From Candidatus Bathyarchaeota archaeon (GTDB lineage Archaea > Thermoproteota > Bathyarchaeia > Bathyarchaeales > Bathycorpusculaceae): a DNA stretch of 19,322 nucleotides. The DNA is taken from contig CAWEPZ010000004.1 in NCBI GenBank assembly GCA_963811105.1, positions 1 to 19,322 on the forward strand, written 5' to 3'. This document shows, piece by piece, positions 417 through 11,374 of the stretch; the first letter of the stretch is position 1; every line of letters begins with the position of its first letter. The position numbers and the translations under genes were made by a program. The notes beneath the pieces are model-generated. The model worked only from the letters and a program-made list of their open reading frames with translations. It was not told the DNA's origin and did not search any database.

Positions 417-610
417 CCAATTTGCAAAAGAATCTTGACTTAGGCTAGTCAAAGTTTCTCTTATGCAAGAAAACGATCCAAGGTCAGTCCAAATAGACTT
501 CCGACTACCTTTTTACTTCACCTCATTCCTTCTTAAATTCCTTTCATTCTTGTATTTCAGACAACATTCTCTTATCAGCGAACAAAGTCGCCTACACCAT
601 TGATTGTCAA

Positions 611-1191
611 TTAGGGAAGCGGGAATTCTGGCAGATGGCCACATAAGACGTCGCCGTGGACCTTAGCGGCAAAACCCATCCGCTGCACCGCAAACATAAA
701 CAGGATATCCGGTGTAACACATGGATTAAATTTGAAACGGTAACCGCTCTCAAAGACACATCTTTTGATTAATAGACAGCTTGTTCCCGCCATAACCCAG
801 CCGCTAAGGATCTTGCCCTCAACAGCGTTTAACGGTAAATACCAAACAGTCATGTTTTCATCTAGGAAACCCGAGAATTAAGCCTTGGCCGTTATGTCGA
901 CGCACAAACCCACAAGCAACATCAACATTTAAGCCGAGCAGCTTCTGAAAAGAACTCAGGCGGAACCTGCACATCTAACTCCACAAGCCACAAATGACTA
1001 TAATCTCCGGAGAGAAACTTTTCCACAATGAGATTTTGGCACTCCACAAGACCTGCCCACGGAAGTTTTGCTGAAGGCGGAGTAACAAAAACCTCATGGT
1101 CCACACCTTGCAAAGCAGCCTCCACATACGATAGAGTCGACGGCAAATAGCCGTGATAGCGGTCTTTTTGATTAAGGCTTGGGATGCCCAC
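611..1191 (-). CDS. GT-A fold (GT2-like) viral glycosyltransferase, ~192 aa, interrupted by two +1 insertions (~950 and ~868)
   Basis: Removing one T at each site joins ORFs 922-1191 and 611-853 into ...FLSGDYSHLWLVELDVQVPPESFQKLLGLNVDVACGFV...MAGTSCLLIKRCVF...PDILF...GF...DVLCGH, matching the phage GT2-like pattern (ExD at the DxD position). In-frame KIRVLV precedes GIPS, so the start is uncertain. Confidence 0.65.
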
Positions 1192-1469
1192 TAAGACTCT
1201 GATTTTTTGGACGCTCTCTTTTTCAACCCTTTCGAGGTCTCTAAAGGGGCTTCTAAGGGATCTGCAGGCGCCTTAACTATTTCAATTGGAATAGGCTCAA
1301 AGCTTCCAGGAACGGCAGCCACAACCGGAACAGGATCCACACGCTCAAGCCATGCTTCACCCTCGTAATTTTCAGGCAAATCTACGACGTCACCGGGCTT
1401 GTAAACTGTGCCATTTGCGTCTGCAAATTCTTGGACACTTCCCTTTCCAGTTTTCAAACGAAACTTCAC
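1191..1469 (-). CDS. Small hypothetical protein downstream of the capsid gene (possible virion accessory protein)
   Basis: GTG start at 1469 preceded by an SD-like GGTGGTGA; YKPGDVVDLP motif, Pro/acidic linker and basic tail, typical of small post-MCP phage proteins. Confidence 0.6.
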   Translation of the reverse strand: MKFRLKTGKGSVQEFADANGTVYKPGDVVDLPENYEGEAWLERVDPVPVVAAVPGSFEPIPIEIVKAPADPLEAPLETSKGLKKRASKKSES

Positions 1470-1520
1470 TCTTCTCTCACCACCCTTCAAATATTACTGG
1501 ATTTTGATACTTTTGTTTAA

Positions 1521-1543
1521 CCCCGAAAAAAACAGGGGGAAAA
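1521..1543 (-). terminator. Putative oligo-T terminator after the capsid gene
   Basis: Minus strand reads TTTTCCCCCTGTTTTTTTCGGGG about 30 nt after the MCP stop; archaeal terminators are oligo-T tracts. Confidence 0.4.
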
Positions 1544-1574
1544 TAGATTACAGATTGCAGATACTGCAGATTTC

Positions 1575-2472
1575 TTAAGTTAGCCCTGTGAGTTCGCAGA
1601 TGCTTTCTGCACGTTTTATGCGTGGTGCAACAACTTCGAAGACTTTGCATTTCAGATTCATGTCGTCGTCTTCTATGGAGCGGACGTTCATGTCGCGGCC
1701 GATGACCATTTCGAAATTGTCTTTGCCCAGTTCAAGAACTAGTGCACTTGTGGTTAAGCCGGCGCTTGTGAACAGACTATCACTGGTGTAGATGCCTGCA
1801 GGGAACAGCGGGTTTGCACCCTGTATGACATCAATCCATTTGGTAGCTGAACCCGAAACGAGGCCTCTGTAGCTTCGCATTCCAAGCAGACCGCAAAACA
1901 CAAGCATAGTTCTGCTTGTTGGTAAAGCCGTCTTCCTCAAGTTTCCCAACTGCATTGCTTAGGTCAGCTAAGGACCCTGCAGGCCAAGCTGCGCCACTAC
2001 TTTGAGTATTTCTACCTGTAGCGGTGGCTAGACCCTCAATGCCTAAAGCTTTCCATCCAACGTATTCGCCTGTGATGAGTAGTTTGTCCTCTTCCTCGGC
2101 TACTTGTCTTGCTGCATCAATTGCTTCCTGTACATCAAGCGGCTGTCCACTGGCTCGGCTTGCCTCTAGATCTCTCCAGTTGATTTTGAAATTCTGATCT
2201 AGCACCGGCACAGTAATGTCAAAGGGTGTTTTCACTGAGCGGTCCTTGGACCCGCTTTGACCGTATAGGCTGATTCTTGCTTGCCCCTTACTTGTGCGCT
2301 TGTATCCGCGCATAGTTAAGAAGCCTGCGTGAGGTAAGGTCTCAACTGGGAACAGCTTACGACCGATCAATGCAGGTTGAACAGCTTCAGTTATCCGATC
2401 CTCAATGTACATTATTTCTTCGTCAGTTAGCTGAGCAGTATCCATATTTCCAACTCTTCTTAGAGATTGCAT
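1575..2472 (-). CDS. Major capsid protein, HK97 fold, encapsulin/Linocin M18-like (~298 aa; +1 insertion at ~1869)
   Basis: ATG 2472 with SD AGGAG. Motifs LTDEE..IE...AV.P.LIGRKLFPV, VPVL...F.I.WRDLEASR..GQPLD...A..AARQVAEEEDKLL..G, GIEGL, and C-terminal FEMVIGRDM...FEVVAPRIKRAESIC match family-1 encapsulin/HK97 shells. ORFs 1831-2565 and 1575-1955 join as AKL-RGLVSGSATKWIDVI when one base is removed. Confidence 0.85.
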
Positions 2473-2483
2473 GTTTAGTTCTC

Positions 2484-2960
2484 CTATGAGGCAGCAGCCG
2501 CGTCTGCAGCAGGCATCCAGTGCACTAGAATTTTGGCGTCTGTTGTTACGTTGCTTGACTCCCAAGCGTAGCCGATTACTCTACCCTGAGCACCCATAGC
2601 GCCAACTGCTAGTTTGGCAACTTTGCCATTTGCAGCAGTGACCAGTGGGTCGCCTCGAGTAACGTTCTCGGAAGCTAAGAGAGTTAGAACGCATATGCAT
2701 TCGCCAAAAATCACGGGTACTTGATCGCCAACTGCATAAGCTTCAGTTACTTGTTTGTCAGCAACTACGTCTAGAACACCACATTCGACACTTGCTTTAG
2801 CACCAGATTCCTTCACAGTTTGGTCAACAGCATCGAAGATAACAACGCGTCCAGGCAGCATATCTGCTGGAGTAGCAGCGGCGCCAACTTCCATCTCAAT
2901 CGTCAATGGATCGCCTGCGGCGACGATTTGGTTGCTTGGTTTAACGATACCTTGCGGCAT
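2484..2960 (-). CDS. Putative capsid cement/decoration protein (158 aa)
   Basis: Directly upstream of the MCP; Ala/Gly/Val-rich beta-type sequence with V..GD.L..AANG.V and IGYA.ES motifs typical of head decoration (DUF2190-like) proteins. Confidence 0.65.
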   Translation of the reverse strand: MPQGIVKPSNQIVAAGDPLTIEMEVGAAATPADMLPGRVVIFDAVDQTVKESGAKASVECGVLDVVADKQVTEAYAVGDQVPVIFGECICVLTLLASENVTRGDPLVTAANGKVAKLAVGAMGAQGRVIGYAWESSNVTTDAKILVHWMPAADAAAAS

Positions 2961-2962
2961 GG

Positions 2963-3379
2963 TTAAGCAGCTCCCTTGCGTCTTCGGGCAGTTACTACAC
3001 TTTGGTCGCCTATTGTCAGACCTTTTTCTCGGTCAGACATGTCAGCACCATGCACGCCATAGCGGACACTGTTAATTTTGGGAGGCATTGCCTGATCCAA
3101 CGTAGCCTTGATATTTTTCAAGTCGGCGATGCTTTTGCCTGCAAGATCAGCCACTTTGAATTGGCTCTTGGGCAAAATATCACCGATTAGCTTAGACTTC
3201 TCTTGGCTTTCCAAAACCTTGTTAACCTCTTCAAGTTGTGCAGTTAAATCGCGATTTAAGCCGTTAACGCGGTCTAATTCTTGTTTTTGACTCTCGATAG
3301 TACCTAATGCTTCGTCCAGATTCATTTGCATAACTGAGTTTTTTGGTTTTTTGTCGTCCACATTTGCTTCATTTGTCAT
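2963..3379 (-). CDS. Putative capsid scaffolding protein (138 aa, coiled coil)
   Basis: Located between protease and cement/MCP; heptad-like charged helix (LDEALGTIESQKQELDRVNGLNRDLTAQLEEVNKVLESQEK); probable start MTNEAN at 3379; C-terminal KGLTIGD motif. Confidence 0.65.
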   Translation of the reverse strand: MTNEANVDDKKPKNSVMQMNLDEALGTIESQKQELDRVNGLNRDLTAQLEEVNKVLESQEKSKLIGDILPKSQFKVADLAGKSIADLKNIKATLDQAMPPKINSVRYGVHGADMSDREKGLTIGDQSVVTARRRKGAA

Positions 3380-3408
3380 GTTTTTTTCCTGCCATTTATT
3401 TCCGCGAT

Positions 3409-4327
3409 TTATAACGCCCCGTCGTGGTGGCGAGTGCCCCATCCCGCACTAGTCATAACATTTTGTCGGCCTTTCGGCATGTTACTTAGAAGCCTACGCG
3501 AGTGCTCAAGCACATCACTAGGTTGAAGAATCTCCTTAGTTTTGGCAGTTTTATCTAGGTCACCTGTGTCGCTGTTTTCTTGGACCCAAGCTTGAGCCTT
3601 CTCAGGAGTCCAGCCCTTAGACACTTCAAAGAGGTATTCTCTTGTCGCAGCGTCTCCGGATGCGAAACCGGATGGCAAGAGAGTTTTTCTTGAGTTTGCC
3701 CACTAGGGCATAGACGCCTTCCTTCGCATTTACTGCCAAGGTGCTTAGGCGGCAAGCAAACAGAGACGGATCCAAAACATTTACTCGCAGGAAACCGTCG
3801 AAACTGTCCATCTGCAGACCGCAAAAAGGTGCAGGACATCGACCCTCAGGCACCCCGACAGCTACATGACCAAACATTAGGTTCGTCTGCTTAAAATCGT
3901 AGGGCTCACCGGCAAAAGTGCCAGGAACACAGACGTCATCGCTGTAGTATGCGCAGCTCACATCCTTGGAGAGTTCGCCTTTGCGAGCCCTCTCGAGCAA
4001 GGCCTCATCGCAGAGAGTCTTCATGAAGTAGACGTTCCCAAAGACGCTGTTAGTTTTTTCATCAAAGGCAATGTCTTTGACTTTGCCCCGAATTACCGCA
4101 CGCTTCCGGACTTCAATCGTTGGAACATGGTTGTAAACCACAACCCAAGCGCCGTCTAGAGTGAATGCAGCAGCCTTCAACTCATCAGCTGGTTTGAATC
4201 CGCGGCCATTGCAATAGCTGGAGACGCATTCCCGCGCAAGAATTGTCGGAACAATAACAGCGTTTTCTGTTTCTTGAATCTTCTTGGAAGAGTCAAATTC
4301 AGTTTGAGCCAAACGAAGGTTAATCAT
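3409..4327 (-). CDS. DUF2213-type putative prohead (maturation) protease, ~305 aa (+1 insertion at ~3686)
   Basis: ATG 4327 overlaps the portal stop (ATGA), SD AGGAGG. DUF2213-like motifs ILARE.V..Y, KP.DEL, NHVP, DVSCAY, G...GEPYD..Q.....HVAV...GRC. Removing one A joins a C-terminal domain ...GVYALVGKLKK...EYLFEVSKGWTPEKAQAWV, seen on phage head proteases. Confidence 0.75.
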
Positions 4328-5678
4328 TGCTTCTTTTTCCTCCTGAAGCGTTTTGCTAGCCATAAATAAGCAGAATCCGATGATTCAGACCCAGAACCAT
4401 TGGATGCCTTTGCATCAGTGCCCGTCTGTGTACTAGGCGGAGGCTGTGGAGGCGCTTTCAAGCCTAAGACAACTTTGCCTGCACCCTCGGGTAGAGGTAA
4501 CTTGCCTTCTTCAGCTCGTATCTCATCAATAGTGCACCAGGCAGTCTGTAGGTTGTGAGCCTGGGCTAGCTGATACTCAATGGTTGCTTTCGCGACTTCG
4601 TCAAGTTCGAAGCCGGATGGCCAAACAATCTGGTAGTCGTTCACTTTGCGGATCTGGCCTGTCTCCATGAGGCGGTCAATCAGGTTCCACAGAATAGGTG
4701 TAGGTCCTGTTTCCTGCAGGGCAGCTATTCCACCCCAATATTCACGGTCATTAACTTCGCTCCCGGCAGAGTGCTCCAGCGTTGGCGCCACGTAAATGAG
4801 AAACGGGAATCCTGGCTCCGCAACTCATGCTCTCCAGTGTGGACGTAATGTAGGGCTCAGGATTGACAGCTTTGCCGTTAATGCCCTTGAAATCTAAGGT
4901 TGATTTGTCGTCATGCACAAAATGAGTGCGAGCATTTAGGGCTCTGAATTGCTGACTATTCTCAAAATCATCTAGCTGTTTTTTCTTGGCACCGTTTAGG
5001 GTAATGTCAGGGAACCCAGACCCGTACCTAACAAGAGTTTCGCCTAGAGCCCAACGTTCATTGCGATAAACTGTTGAATCGTCGTAGATCACTTCTAGGC
5101 AGGATAAGCCTTTCCAGGGATGATCCAGCAGCCGAGTAGCGCAATGAATCGCCCTAGAATAATGGAACTTCTTTTCCAGCCCCATTGTTGTTGACCGCTT
5201 AAAGGTATACAGAACAGGCAGCCCAAACCGTGGGCTATTCTCGTCTTTATCCTCGTCGGAATAACCAACACTGCAGGTAAACGAGGTGTAAGGGACGAGC
5301 TCACGGATCTCCCTAGGAGACTCGACAGGTTGGCTTGGATCGGCTCCATAATCAACATAGGTTATGGCGAGGACTGCCCAGCCGAATAAACGCTCAAAAA
5401 TAAAGAGCTGCCTTATGGCTGCCGTCGCGTTTAAGTCATCTAGGACCTTGGCAACTTCGCGACTCCACTCTGGATCAGGCTTCTCAGCGACTTCCTCAAC
5501 AGTGAAGCCCTTGCTAAACATATCATAAGGAACGTCAAAAACTAACCGTTTAGAAACCGGTTCACGTTTAACACTGAAAAGCAAATCTTGCTCATTTAAG
5601 CGGCTGCCCAAAGCGAGCCTGCCAGGTAGCGCCAGAACCACGTATTCCATATCTGTCTGCTGAATTCCCGCTAACCAT
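4324..5678 (-). CDS. Phage portal protein, DUF1073/HI1409-like, ~450 aa (+1 insertions at ~5596 and ~4769)
   Basis: Motifs ERLFGWAVL, D..SPRFGLP.LY, FH.SR.IH, G.S.LE..YD, RIPVS.L.G..AG.LAGSE.ND.EYW, YQI.WP, IDEIRA. Reconstructed start MVSGNSADRY at 5678; joins ORFs 4751-5650 and 4324-4791; first gene of the head operon. Confidence 0.8.
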
Positions 5679-5743
5679 AATCAACCGCAAAAATAAGATC
5701 AATTAACTAACCACTAATAGTTTGTTAGCCCAAACGCGATAAT

Positions 5744-5756
5744 AACGAATTTAAGC
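5744..5756 (+). promoter_or_regulatory. Putative BRE/TATA box for a leaderless HTH gene
   Basis: AACGAA-TTTAAG about 27 nt upstream of the ATG at 5782, the expected archaeal spacing for a leaderless mRNA. Confidence 0.45.
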
Positions 5757-5781
5757 ATCCGTTGGCAAAAATAGCCTTGTA

Positions 5782-5973
5782 ATGAGCTTAACAGAAAGAG
5801 AGCGCTTAATTCTGCAATTAGAAACCAAGGGCTTCAGCGACTACAAAATAGCCCGCAAAATCAACACCGACCCACCCTCAATAACGCGGTCAAGGCAAAA
5901 TGCCCACAAAAAACTCAAACAAGCCCAAACAGACCTACAATACGCCAAGCAAATAGGAATAACAATAGATTAA
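5782..5973 (+). CDS. Small HTH DNA-binding protein (LuxR/sigma-70 region 4-like), divergent from the head operon
   Basis: LTERERLILQL..KGFSDYKIARKI..DPPSITRSRQNAHKKL fits the LuxR-type HTH pattern. Confidence 0.7.
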   Translation: MSLTERERLILQLETKGFSDYKIARKINTDPPSITRSRQNAHKKLKQAQTDLQYAKQIGITID

Positions 5974-6031
5974 GCCTTGGACCCAAAACTTTTAATCAAC
6001 TTTTAATACGTGAGACGATCACTAATAAAAC

Positions 6032-6259
6032 ATGGACATCGCTCTTTTTGCGATAGGCGTATTCTGCATTATCTGGGGTTTGCCATTTTGTTTCCCATGC
6101 CAAGTTATTGCGCTTTGGGAAAAAATGTCAAAAGATAAAACAAGCCAAACAAATCAAGAGCCATACCAACACGTAAAAAGCGTGAGGACTTTTGGTTTGG
6201 CTTTCATTTCTATTGGTGTTATTCTAATACTTCTCAGCTTCGCAGGTTTTGTGAAGTGA
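6032..6259 (+). CDS. Small membrane protein (2 TM helices)
   Basis: Hydrophobic N- and C-terminal segments; TTTTAATA TATA-like box about 25 nt upstream. Confidence 0.6.
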   Translation: MDIALFAIGVFCIIWGLPFCFPCQVIALWEKMSKDKTSQTNQEPYQHVKSVRTFGLAFISIGVILILLSFAGFVK

Positions 6260-6382
6260 AGACATCAATCTTCTTGTTTTCGTCCTTGAATTAAATCGCA
6301 GAGTCAAAAAACCACAGGCACCGACTTACAATCCAGTCACTTACGAAGCTCAGCCAAAACCTCAGGATCAATACCCAGAACC

Positions 6383-6955: not shown

Positions 6956-7382
6956 TAACGTCCATTAAAATTAGTGTCTGGCAATCTACCCTAAGCAGCA
7001 TAAGAAAACTCAAAGCCAAAAAGCATGGACTTTTCCCATAGGTACCCACCAAGCCATAAAAGGACTTTAAACAGCCTTTATTATCCAAACCCTCAAAATC
7101 TTTCCAGCTGCTGACGTCTACAAATCTCCAATTATGACTATCAAACAGATCGTTATTCTGTGAACCACATTCACGTTTACTATCTGTTCCAAGTGTTCCA
7201 TCTGTTCCGACCTTTTCACTTAACTTTTCATAATTTAGCTTTTTTTGTACCTCGTTTTTTTTCGTTCCTGAAATAGTTGTATCAGAGGTCGGAACACCTG
7301 GAACAGCTGGAACAAAAGTAACGTATCTCCATGTTGCTTGGCAGGTCCTAACATTGTTTTTCTGTTGGTAGTAGATTATCAA
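6933..7382 (-). CDS. Hypothetical ORF spanning the putative origin (doubtful as annotated)
   Basis: Fills the operon gap, but its VPAVPGVP and GTDGTLGT repeats are simply the translation of the DNA iterons. Confidence 0.3.
   Translation of the reverse strand: MIIYYQQKNNVRTCQATWRYVTFVPAVPGVPTSDTTISGTKKNEVQKKLNYEKLSEKVGTDGTLGTDSKRECGSQNNDLFDSHNWRFVDVSSWKDFEGLDNKGCLKSFYGLVGTYGKSPCFLALSFLMLLRVDCQTLILMDVNGVEFLD
7185..7314. repeat. Inverted arrays of three 9-bp repeats (TGTTCCnnn) flanking an AT-rich spacer; putative replication origin
   Basis: 7185-7211 TGTTCCAAG TGTTCCATC TGTTCCGAC; 7288-7314 GTCGGAACA CCTGGAACA GCTGGAACA; inner 11 bp is a perfect inverted repeat (TGTTCCGACCT/AGGTCGGAACA); 72-bp spacer is about 72% AT with long T runs. 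Confidence 0.8.
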
Positions 7383-8728: not shown

Positions 8729-8774
8729 AAAATATAAACTCCGTTAGGGCGGGTCGTTTCTGTTTTTTAGTTTT

Positions 8775-9011
8775 TCAAGCCGGGTGGGGCATGAAGCAGT
8801 AAATGGAAGGGTCGCTGAAACTGGATTTGGGACAGAAGGTTCCATCGGCACCGGAACAGCTGCGAGCACCCAAAGAATACTCGAGCAGTGCACCTGCAAA
8901 CTCACAAGCATTCATAGGCAAAGATTCCTCAGGGCAAATACTGCAGCTAGCCGACTTTCCGACGTCAATCTCTTTATAGTATACATTCCAAAGAGGCACC
9001 CACTTAGGCAA
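8775..9011 (-). CDS. Small Cys-rich hypothetical protein (possible Zn-binding)
   Basis: TTG start with strong SD AAGGAGG; CSIC plus four more Cys and a His. Confidence 0.45.
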   Translation of the reverse strand: MPKWVPLWNVYYKEIDVGKSASCSICPEESLPMNACEFAGALLEYSLGARSCSGADGTFCPKSSFSDPSIYCFMPHPA

Positions 9012-9321
9012 ACAAGGCCCTCCTTAACCTGCACGTCGAAGTAAAATTACAGGAAAACTTTGCTTAATTTTCTGAGGACCTGTAAATCATCGCTTGAAAC
9101 TCCAGGTACGGCATGAACTTGTTGCCATGAAACTTAAAGAATACTGCAGGTTTGGGGAGTCGGTTAATTGATGTTGAATCTGCTCGGATTGTTCCAGTTA
9201 ATGATGAGCCAAACTCGATGAGATTGAATTGACTAGGTCATAGGCCTTCTTGCTTTCAGCCTCGACGATTCCAGGCTGCCGTATTTAGGAAGAGTAAACT
9301 CTCGTCAAGCTCAGCACTCAA
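9012..9321 (-). pseudogene. Fragmented hypothetical ORF
   Basis: SD AAGGAGG then TTG at 9321 (MSAELDESLLFL...) but the frame closes early; the gap lies in an otherwise gap-free operon. Confidence 0.3.
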
Positions 9322-11297: not shown

Positions 11298-11374
11298 TGG
11301 CGCCGTCGAAAGGATTCGGACCTTTGACCGACTGGTTAACAGCCAGCCGCTCTACCGGGCTGAGCCACGACGGC
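11298..11374 (-). tRNA. tRNA-Asn (GTT), intron-less, CCA encoded
   Basis: GCCGTCG TG GCTC AGCCCGGTA GAGC G GCTGG CT GTT AA CCAGT CGGTC AAAGG TCCGAAT CCTTT CGACGGC G CCA folds into a full cloverleaf. Confidence 0.96.

Follow-up and report, generated by a model that had tools for sequence, protein, structure and literature searches.

How encapsulins arose from virus capsids, and in particular the source of their cargo-loading system, is an open question, and it is this question that gives interest to a locus in a Candidatus Bathyarchaeota archaeon (GenBank assembly GCA_963811105.1, contig CAWEPZ010000004.1). The stretch of DNA analysed here, called the window below, is the entire 19.3-kb contig (19,322 nucleotides) of a genome of 3.49 Mb in 15 contigs. 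Its minus strand carries the head genes of a virus-like element in the order portal (PF06381), DUF2213 protease, scaffold, decoration protein and Linocin_M18 capsid protein, the last being of the family-1 encapsulin type. An earlier reading made from the letters alone (the sequence-only reading) pointed to the end of the putative scaffolding protein, where a short motif, KGLTIGD, resembles the targeting peptides of encapsulin cargo, and suggested that the scaffold may use the same luminal pocket. Is this likeness a property of a virus family or an accident of one gene, and does it indicate where the scaffold binds? We find that the motif belongs to a conserved and portable unit, for which the capsid protein probably provides a docking pocket of the kind that receives encapsulin tags.

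The scaffolding protein and its C-terminal motif

The two features on which the argument turns are the following.

2963–3379, minus strand: scaffolding-protein gene, 138 aa (P0001), its role taken from gene position and a predicted coiled coil.
2975–3025, minus strand: putative C-terminal docking unit KGLTIGDQSVVTARRRK, which includes KGLTIGD at 3005–3025, from translation and homologue alignments.

Translation of the window gives exactly KGLTIGD at 3005–3025 (minus strand), as the sequence-only reading had it. Positions 2966–3037 of that strand encode SDREKGLTIGDQSVVTARRRKGAA, the last 24 residues of the scaffold open reading frame (ORF), with the stop codon at 2963–2965, and the motif is placed 13 residues before the end of the 138-residue protein. 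The ORF as listed spans 2963–3442 (159 aa), and its likely start is the ATG at 3379, from which the homologues, mostly 137–150 aa, align. The frame remains open for about 28 codons 5′ of this start (MGHSPPRRGVINRGNKWQEKN; window 3380–3470, minus strand), and the MGHSPPRRGVINRGNKWQEKN peptide also ends a frameshifted 439-aa protease ORF in the related locus L019 (L019:8600–9919); this upstream open stretch probably just reflects the conserved protease tail in a second reading frame.

Because the protein matches no family in the Pfam and PHROG libraries, we infer its role as head scaffold from two things, the slot that its gene occupies between protease and capsid and the predicted coiled coil. 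Like other scaffold-type proteins it is small and largely helical and is encoded between the portal/protease and capsid genes, and it has a coiled coil in place of an enzyme domain (Pfam, PHROG, AlphaFold2). The AlphaFold2 model of P0001, with a mean predicted local distance difference test score (pLDDT) of 72, has a helix at residues 13–71 (pLDDT 79–91), short helices at 76–80 and 84–97, a non-helical flexible tail at 98–127 (pLDDT about 50) in which the motif lies, and a basic helix at the end (128–136). A scaffold profile run against the sequences in the PDB gave 10 matches at E up to 10, which are coiled-coil noise and include no encapsulin cargo; a tag as short as this is undetectable in this way. 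The scaffold gene was also correctly described as lying two genes upstream of an encapsulin-like shell gene, since the decoration gene follows it and then the PF04454 (Linocin_M18) capsid gene.

Conservation of the motif

A database search gave a close family of 115 scaffold homologues with 51–99% identity, and 111 of them have x-T-[VI]-G-D in the tail; the four exceptions are two truncated sequences and two in which T is replaced by A or S. Within the 111, T, G and the following D are each present in all, the G before L in 110, L in 101 (Y in 9) and V in 98 (I in 13). D is followed by L (84 sequences), M (12), Q (5), I (5), R (3) or C (2), and S comes next in 109. The docking unit thus has the family consensus (E)KGLTVGDLSVVTAxKRK, and its majority form EKGLTVGDLS is nearer to the encapsulin tag LTVGSL than is the minority variant GLTIGDQS found in the window. 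GLTVGD is present in 18 of 18 related loci, and scaffolds with only 44–47% identity have kept GLTVGDLSVVT while the residues before it have diverged.

More distant relatives extend the pattern toward the encapsulin form. When 1.84 billion representative proteins were searched with a profile, 107 matched; among the 104 examined, 30 have LT[VI]G[DSN] within 40 residues of the C-terminus, and exact LTVGSL is present in three, ending RLTVGSLF, TLTVGSLFGK and GLTVGSLLGK. Alignment of 12 divergent members (19–55% identity) leaves just three columns without variation, those of one Lys and of the motif's T and G. Six distant-clade loci keep the gene order, and their scaffolds end NLTVGSLYG..., RTTVGSLYG..., RMTIGDLYG..., RTTVGNLFG..., RTTVGDLYG... 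and PRLTVGSLFAQPLRSK; in L028 (NLTVGSLYG), L032 (TTVGSLYG) and L034 (RLTVGSLFAQPLRSK) the order is protease, scaffold, decoration, capsid. Conservation of the motif near the C-terminus, proposed as a check by the sequence-only reading, is therefore found in close homologues, in related loci and, as the only invariant block, in the divergent set.

The background was measured in the window's own genome, whose 5470 ORFs of 80 aa or more comprise 1.15 million residues. LT[VI]G[SD] occurs eight times in them, and the two occurrences within about 20 residues of a C-terminus are those of two scaffold copies, the one in the window and one elsewhere in the genome (below).

The unit also varies in number and place. 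P0184 has three copies of the GLTVGDLSVVT unit and P0186 has two, in both proteins directly behind one protease-tail motif, and P0150 has one unit at either end, MSDNLTVGDLSVVTEK at the N-terminus and LSIGDLSVVTQKRK at the C-terminus. Such copy-number variation and independence of position are what a portable docking peptide would show. The protease C-termini of loci L005–L020 have a motif of their own, VLxRSRxLL(G/S), often followed by NMPKGR..MTSAGWG.RHHDGAL.

The capsid protein and encapsulin shells

The likely partner of the tail can be compared directly with solved shells through the intact capsid protein of related locus L017. Its 26 PDB sequence matches at E up to 0.01 are all encapsulin-type shells or nanocages. 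The best is Myxococcus xanthus EncA (E 4.2e-34, residues 14–290, about 30% identity), and the Quasibacillus thermotolerans T=4 shell (6nj8) follows at 9.8e-32, whereas the Thermotoga maritima T=1 shell reaches only 1.8e-5. By this comparison the viral capsid protein is a close sequence relative of the T=3 and T=4 family-1 encapsulin shells. All six capsid proteins of relatives that were tested pass the PF04454 cut-off; the likely partner is, as for a family-1 targeting peptide, a PF04454 shell protein with an N-helix/P-domain pocket.

The tags of the two best-matching systems are the ones that the viral motif resembles. According to the parts of the literature that we cite, those of the EncA system are SHPLTVGSLRR/PEKRLTVGSLRR and that of Q. 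thermotolerans is TVGSLIQ (PMC10960027, PMC10402063), and T=1 systems have GSLxIGSLK or GGDLGIRK (PMC10960027, PMC7925596). Viral EKGLTVGDLS agrees with the EncA core E-K-x-L-T-V-G-x-L in 7 of its 10 positions, and both carry hydrophobic residues at i, i+2 and i+5. The tag of the Q. thermotolerans IMEF cargo likewise contains TVGSL (PMC10960027, in the part cited); its T=4 shell, from the group of solved homologues that ranks second, serves as a cellular iron-storage compartment and comes without portal, protease or terminase. The carriers differ too: the EncB, EncC and EncD tags sit on a ferritin-like enzyme and the viral peptide on a coiled-coil scaffold in a portal-protease-scaffold-decoration-capsid module. 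Family-1 tags belong to enzymatic cargo in an operon without virus genes, and in this respect the viral peptide is unlike them.

In a model described in PMC10402063, the EncA tag EKRLTVGSLR puts its L, V and L into three hydrophobic pockets, and the polar contacts given there for the same protomer are R28, R34, D38, D213 and D243. In the alignment of the L017 protein with EncA these fall on viral R31, R37, P41, A219 and D254 (the PDB chain index is the numbering of PMC10402063 plus one, an offset consistent for the five contacts and for N105). All 19 viral capsid proteins compared, which come from three clades, have R37 and D254, and 18 of the 19 have P41. An AlphaFold2 model of the capsid protein from a 15-row alignment is poor, with a mean pLDDT of 49.3.

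Predicted complex of tail and capsid protein

The complex was predicted for a capsid protein (292 aa, 15-row alignment) with residues 96–142 of a relative's scaffold (37-row alignment), in three runs and three controls. The interaction prediction score from aligned errors (ipSAE) was 0.00, 0.63 and 0.63 (median 0.63), and the best control gave 0.01; in the calibration of the tool the 0.63 mark is reached by 58 of 80 solved complexes and by 2 of 110 mismatched pairs. At least 3% of contacts are shared between the runs, and for the partner the pLDDT is 31, 55 and 59. On the scaffold side the confident part of the predicted interface comprises residues 120 and 123–134 (KGLTVGDLSVVT), and on the capsid side residues 23, 26–27, 30–31, 34, 37–42, 44, 185, 187, 219–220, 242–244, 249, 251 and 254–256, that is, the N-terminal helix and the P-domain, with the equivalents of all five EncA tag contacts. 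In the prediction, then, the tail is placed on the N-helix/P-domain surface rather than away from it, and the predicted viral docking site coincides with the tag pocket of EncA. What the prediction suggests is a pair like that of tag and shell, a likeness rather than binding as such.

Does the tail dock in the tag pocket?

We propose that the scaffold would consist of a coiled-coil body and a flexible tail ending in a portable docking unit, (E)KGLT[VI]GD[L]S-VVT-x-KRK, with hydrophobic residues at i, i+2 and i+5 and then a basic cluster, a layout that it has in common with the targeting peptides of encapsulins such as EKRLTVGSLRR of M. xanthus. The unit would dock in the N-terminal-helix/P-domain pocket on the inner face of each capsid subunit, which is the cargo-tag site of encapsulins, and the docked tail would tether the scaffold inside the assembling procapsid until its release. 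In phage scaffolds, C-terminal coat-binding ends are known from the helix-turn-helix of P22 gp8 and from the 80alpha scaffold and SaPI1 CpmB. There, too, a helical scaffold is anchored by its C-terminus to the inner face of an HK97-fold coat, and the end piece is transferable; those ends are helical motifs unlike encapsulin tags, whereas the putative anchor here is a linear peptide of the encapsulin-tag type.

Docking of the scaffold tail in the encapsulin-type tag pocket is in our judgement the probable arrangement, and the suggestion of a shared luminal pocket gains support from the conservation of the motif and from the modelled site. The signal at the level of the family is stronger than that of the single decayed copy in the window.

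Several observations weigh against this reading. The viral motif has an invariant Asp (111 of 111) where encapsulin tags have Ser, and its i+5 residue is variable, being Q in the window. The unit lies 10–14 residues from the C-terminus, whereas encapsulin tags are at the very end, and its basic cluster (RRRK or KRK) is displaced behind a spacer of 5–6 residues, whereas encapsulin tags are followed by one or two basic residues. On the capsid side, two of the five polar EncA contacts are changed (D38 to P, D213 to A), and conservation in the predicted interface columns does not exceed that in the remainder of the protein (mean entropy 1.163 versus 1.157; Mann-Whitney p = 0.86). One of the three prediction runs gave an ipSAE of 0.00, the partner pLDDT is below 50 in one run, and the complex score may come from the model's memory, because EncA-tag complexes have already been solved. 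The protease tails lack the scaffold motif and have VLxRSRxLL instead, and the available parts of 25 loci gave no second tagged protein: the pattern matched each scaffold and five other places, which lie 35–308 residues from a C-terminus. In the three protease-scaffold fusions that were read, from cultured relatives whose capsid similarity is weaker (Brevundimonas MaInes, Klebsiella KpV2811 and Halorubrum Hardycor1), the motif is absent. Finally, the portal, protease and capsid genes of the window are themselves frameshifted.

The main rival is that the tail serves chiefly as a recognition or cleavage site for the DUF2213 protease, or as a contact for the portal or protease, and that its likeness to a tag is coincidental. 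The protease gene lies directly upstream of the scaffold gene, the S-D-R-E-K before the motif is also invariant or nearly so in the closest clade, and the test of interface conservation gave the capsid pocket no extra support. In herpesviruses, moreover, the scaffold is freed by cleavage close to its capsid-binding end. However, in the relatives at 44–47% identity it is S-D-R-E-K that has been replaced and GLTVGDLSVVT that is retained; the two or three copies and the N-terminal copy in relatives are easier to reconcile with a docking unit than with one cleavage site; and the closest solved relatives of the capsid protein are shells with LTVGSL cargo tags. We consider this explanation unlikely as the main function of the tail; cleavage and docking can coexist.

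Somewhat less probable again is that the tail does bind the capsid protein but resembles encapsulin tags by convergence, as a short hydrophobic-Gly-hydrophobic peptide that would fit any HK97-fold inner groove, at another site or in another register. The consistent Asp in all close-family members that have the motif, the variable i+5 residue and the two differing polar contacts fit this idea, and scaffolds and encapsulin cargo are unrelated outside the tag; the profile search against the PDB brought up no encapsulin cargo. Against it, the homology of the capsid protein with EncA is full length (E 4e-34) with the R34/R37 and D243/D254 pairs conserved, some relatives have exact RLTVGSL with the same i, i+2, i+5 spacing, and the predicted site coincides with the tag pocket.

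Chance likeness in an unconstrained, functionless tail, which the sequence-only reading allowed for since the motif is short and the window copy ends GDQ instead of GSL, is contradicted by near-invariance (111 of 115 homologues, 18 of 18 loci, the only invariant block in divergent relatives) and by the host-genome background (six other LT[VI]G[SD] matches in 1.15 million residues, none near a C-terminus), and can hardly be entertained.

A further step, from shared docking to shared descent, we offer more tentatively than docking in the pocket itself. The targeting peptide and pocket of family-1 encapsulins may be a relic or a mimic of HK97 scaffold-capsid docking, with the Bathyarchaeia viruses keeping the ancestral pair (an L-T-V-G-[DS]-L tail and an EncA-like pocket) and enzymes having become cargo by acquiring a scaffold tail.

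The element in the window

The other features of the window bearing on the element are these.

1575–2472, minus strand: major capsid protein of the Linocin_M18/family-1-encapsulin type (PF04454), one frameshift near 1867–1869.
2484–2960, minus strand: minor capsid/decoration-like protein, 158 aa, intact (PF23982 XM1_gp53_minor_capsid, E 1e-08; phrog_673, phrog_766).
3409–4363, minus strand: DUF2213 head-maturation protease, one frameshift near 3682–3690 (PF09979, E 9.9e-10; phrog_530, named 'head maturation protease' in PHROG).
4324–5666, minus strand: portal gene (Phage_portal_3), two frameshifts at about 5598–5611 and about 4766–4769, from Pfam, PHROG and comparison with an intact relative.
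11298–11374, minus strand: tRNA-Asn (GTT), at the boundary of virus-like DNA and host genes.

The contig ends 1.5 kb past the capsid gene. The break in that gene is seen in three ways: its N-terminal piece passes the PF04454 cut-off (E 3.4e-21) and its C-terminal piece scores 0.0099, tblastn with the intact capsid protein of locus L018 finds residues 1–201 in frame −3 and 201–297 in frame −1, and relative to the second copy of the module (contig C3, below) there is a 1-base indel at 1869. The decoration protein is 72% identical to its L018 homologue, and the C-terminal piece of the protease (3409–3678, minus strand) bears the family motif VLxHSRRLLSNM...HHDGAL.

A second copy of the head module, 95% identical, is present elsewhere in the genome (window 600–5750 versus G000:C3:27141–32245) and is broken at different places. 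The aligned 5.1 kb contains 17 gapped stretches, 16 of one base and one of two, mostly outside homopolymers; the last of the 17 coincides with the alignment's end. Both copies have an intact scaffold gene and an intact decoration gene, and between the two scaffold genes there are 12 synonymous and 4 non-synonymous codon differences. No gapped stretch lies within 2412–3563, which covers these two genes, where about 3.6 would be expected at the overall rate (roughly p = 0.03); this may be due to chance or to continued selection on both genes.

From about 11.5 kb on the window has ordinary archaeal-type host genes, which are intact, and those beside the tRNA-Asn encode a radical SAM protein, a 2-oxoacid:ferredoxin oxidoreductase and a homocitrate synthase; the tRNA-Asn gene is a likely integration site. 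Because the head genes are frameshifted and the two copies broken differently while the host genes are intact, the element is best read, from its sequence, as a decaying provirus, and the window's own scaffold copy may no longer be functional. The window has no terminase gene; terminase-like genes are found elsewhere in the genome, on contigs C7, C6, C12 and C3. Short segments of the window's early region (7164–7336, 5781–6297, 8757–9149 and others) recur with 81–97% identity on contigs C2, C3, C6, C8, C9, C10, C11 and C15, and the genome therefore contains several related provirus remnants.

A family of viruses with encapsulin-like capsid proteins

The related loci come from IMG/VR viral contigs of 12–44 kb and from metagenome-assembled genomes of Bathyarchaeia. 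Their common order is portal, DUF2213 protease, scaffold (136–170 aa as called), 158-aa decoration protein and capsid protein (291–300 aa), and it is conserved in the window and 24 distinct related loci. Four of five related virus records encode the large terminase subunit (PF03237); all three with a completeness rating of 100% are among them, and one of these three has direct terminal repeats. Locus L008 has an integrase gene. These are real viruses with an encapsulin-like capsid protein, and the family comprises tailed viruses and proviruses of Bathyarchaeia. In the complete relatives (G001, which is the L010 record, G003 and G005) the large terminase gene is more than 10 kb from the portal gene and not directly upstream of it.

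Two candidates fell away. A 'head-only element' as a property of the family is not supported, given the terminase genes in four of five related records, and locus L027, found with P0155, was dropped as a coiled-coil-only match beside an unrelated capsid gene. Cultured phages gave few matches: for the capsid protein the L017 query found only 4 records and the L034 query 11, and for the scaffold there were none at E up to 1.

The capsid gene lies within a portal-protease-scaffold-decoration module and is in this respect unlike a gene for a non-viral encapsulin shell, though it matches PF04454. In public databases, capsid proteins of this group, such as those of P0296 and the L022 contig, appear under the titles 'family 1 encapsulin nanocompartment shell protein [Candidatus Bathyarchaeota archaeon]' at NCBI and 'linocin/CFP29 family protein' at JGI. 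In PMC13669383 an 'archaeal encapsulin from Bathyarchaeota' is grouped with a haloarchaeal virus, and it may be a viral gene of this kind.

Relation to published work

Earlier papers on the origin of encapsulins, in the parts cited here, argue from fold and phylogeny and compare cargo with scaffold only as a helical hairpin. Andreas and Giessen (2021; PMC8346489) argue in their article for a phage origin of encapsulins and cite the case of an encapsulin that Sulfolobus solfataricus carries in a defective provirus. In its main text, PMC13669383 (Nat Commun 2026) proposes a cargo/scaffold switch. Both works propose an interconversion of encapsulins and HK97 viruses in which the internal protein, cargo or scaffold, decides the role of the shell. 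The 2026 main text groups family-1 encapsulins with a few viral capsid proteins bearing Linocin_M18 domains, and its comparison of cargo with scaffold gives a shared helical hairpin at 4–18% global identity. The terms 'targeting peptide' and 'cargo-loading' are absent from that main text, as is 'scaffold' from the text of PMC8346489, and neither article, supplements not covered, reports a shared docking peptide. A preprint on Bathyarchaeia viruses mentions neither encapsulins nor scaffolds in the part available to us, and a full-text literature search, again with supplements not covered, gave no paper linking a scaffold tail to encapsulin tags.

Implications

Many 'family 1 encapsulin' database entries of Bathyarchaeia are on this evidence virus capsid genes. 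A viral scaffold with a conserved and portable tail of the encapsulin-tag type, paired with an EncA-like capsid protein, makes the question of encapsulin origin approachable at the bench, and suggests that the tag system derives from virus assembly. The docking tail would also offer a natural handle for packing proteins into HK97-type capsids. If the tag and pocket of family-1 encapsulins are indeed a relic or mimic of scaffold docking, the tails of these Bathyarchaeia viruses and the tags of encapsulins could be partly interchangeable between capsids and encapsulins.

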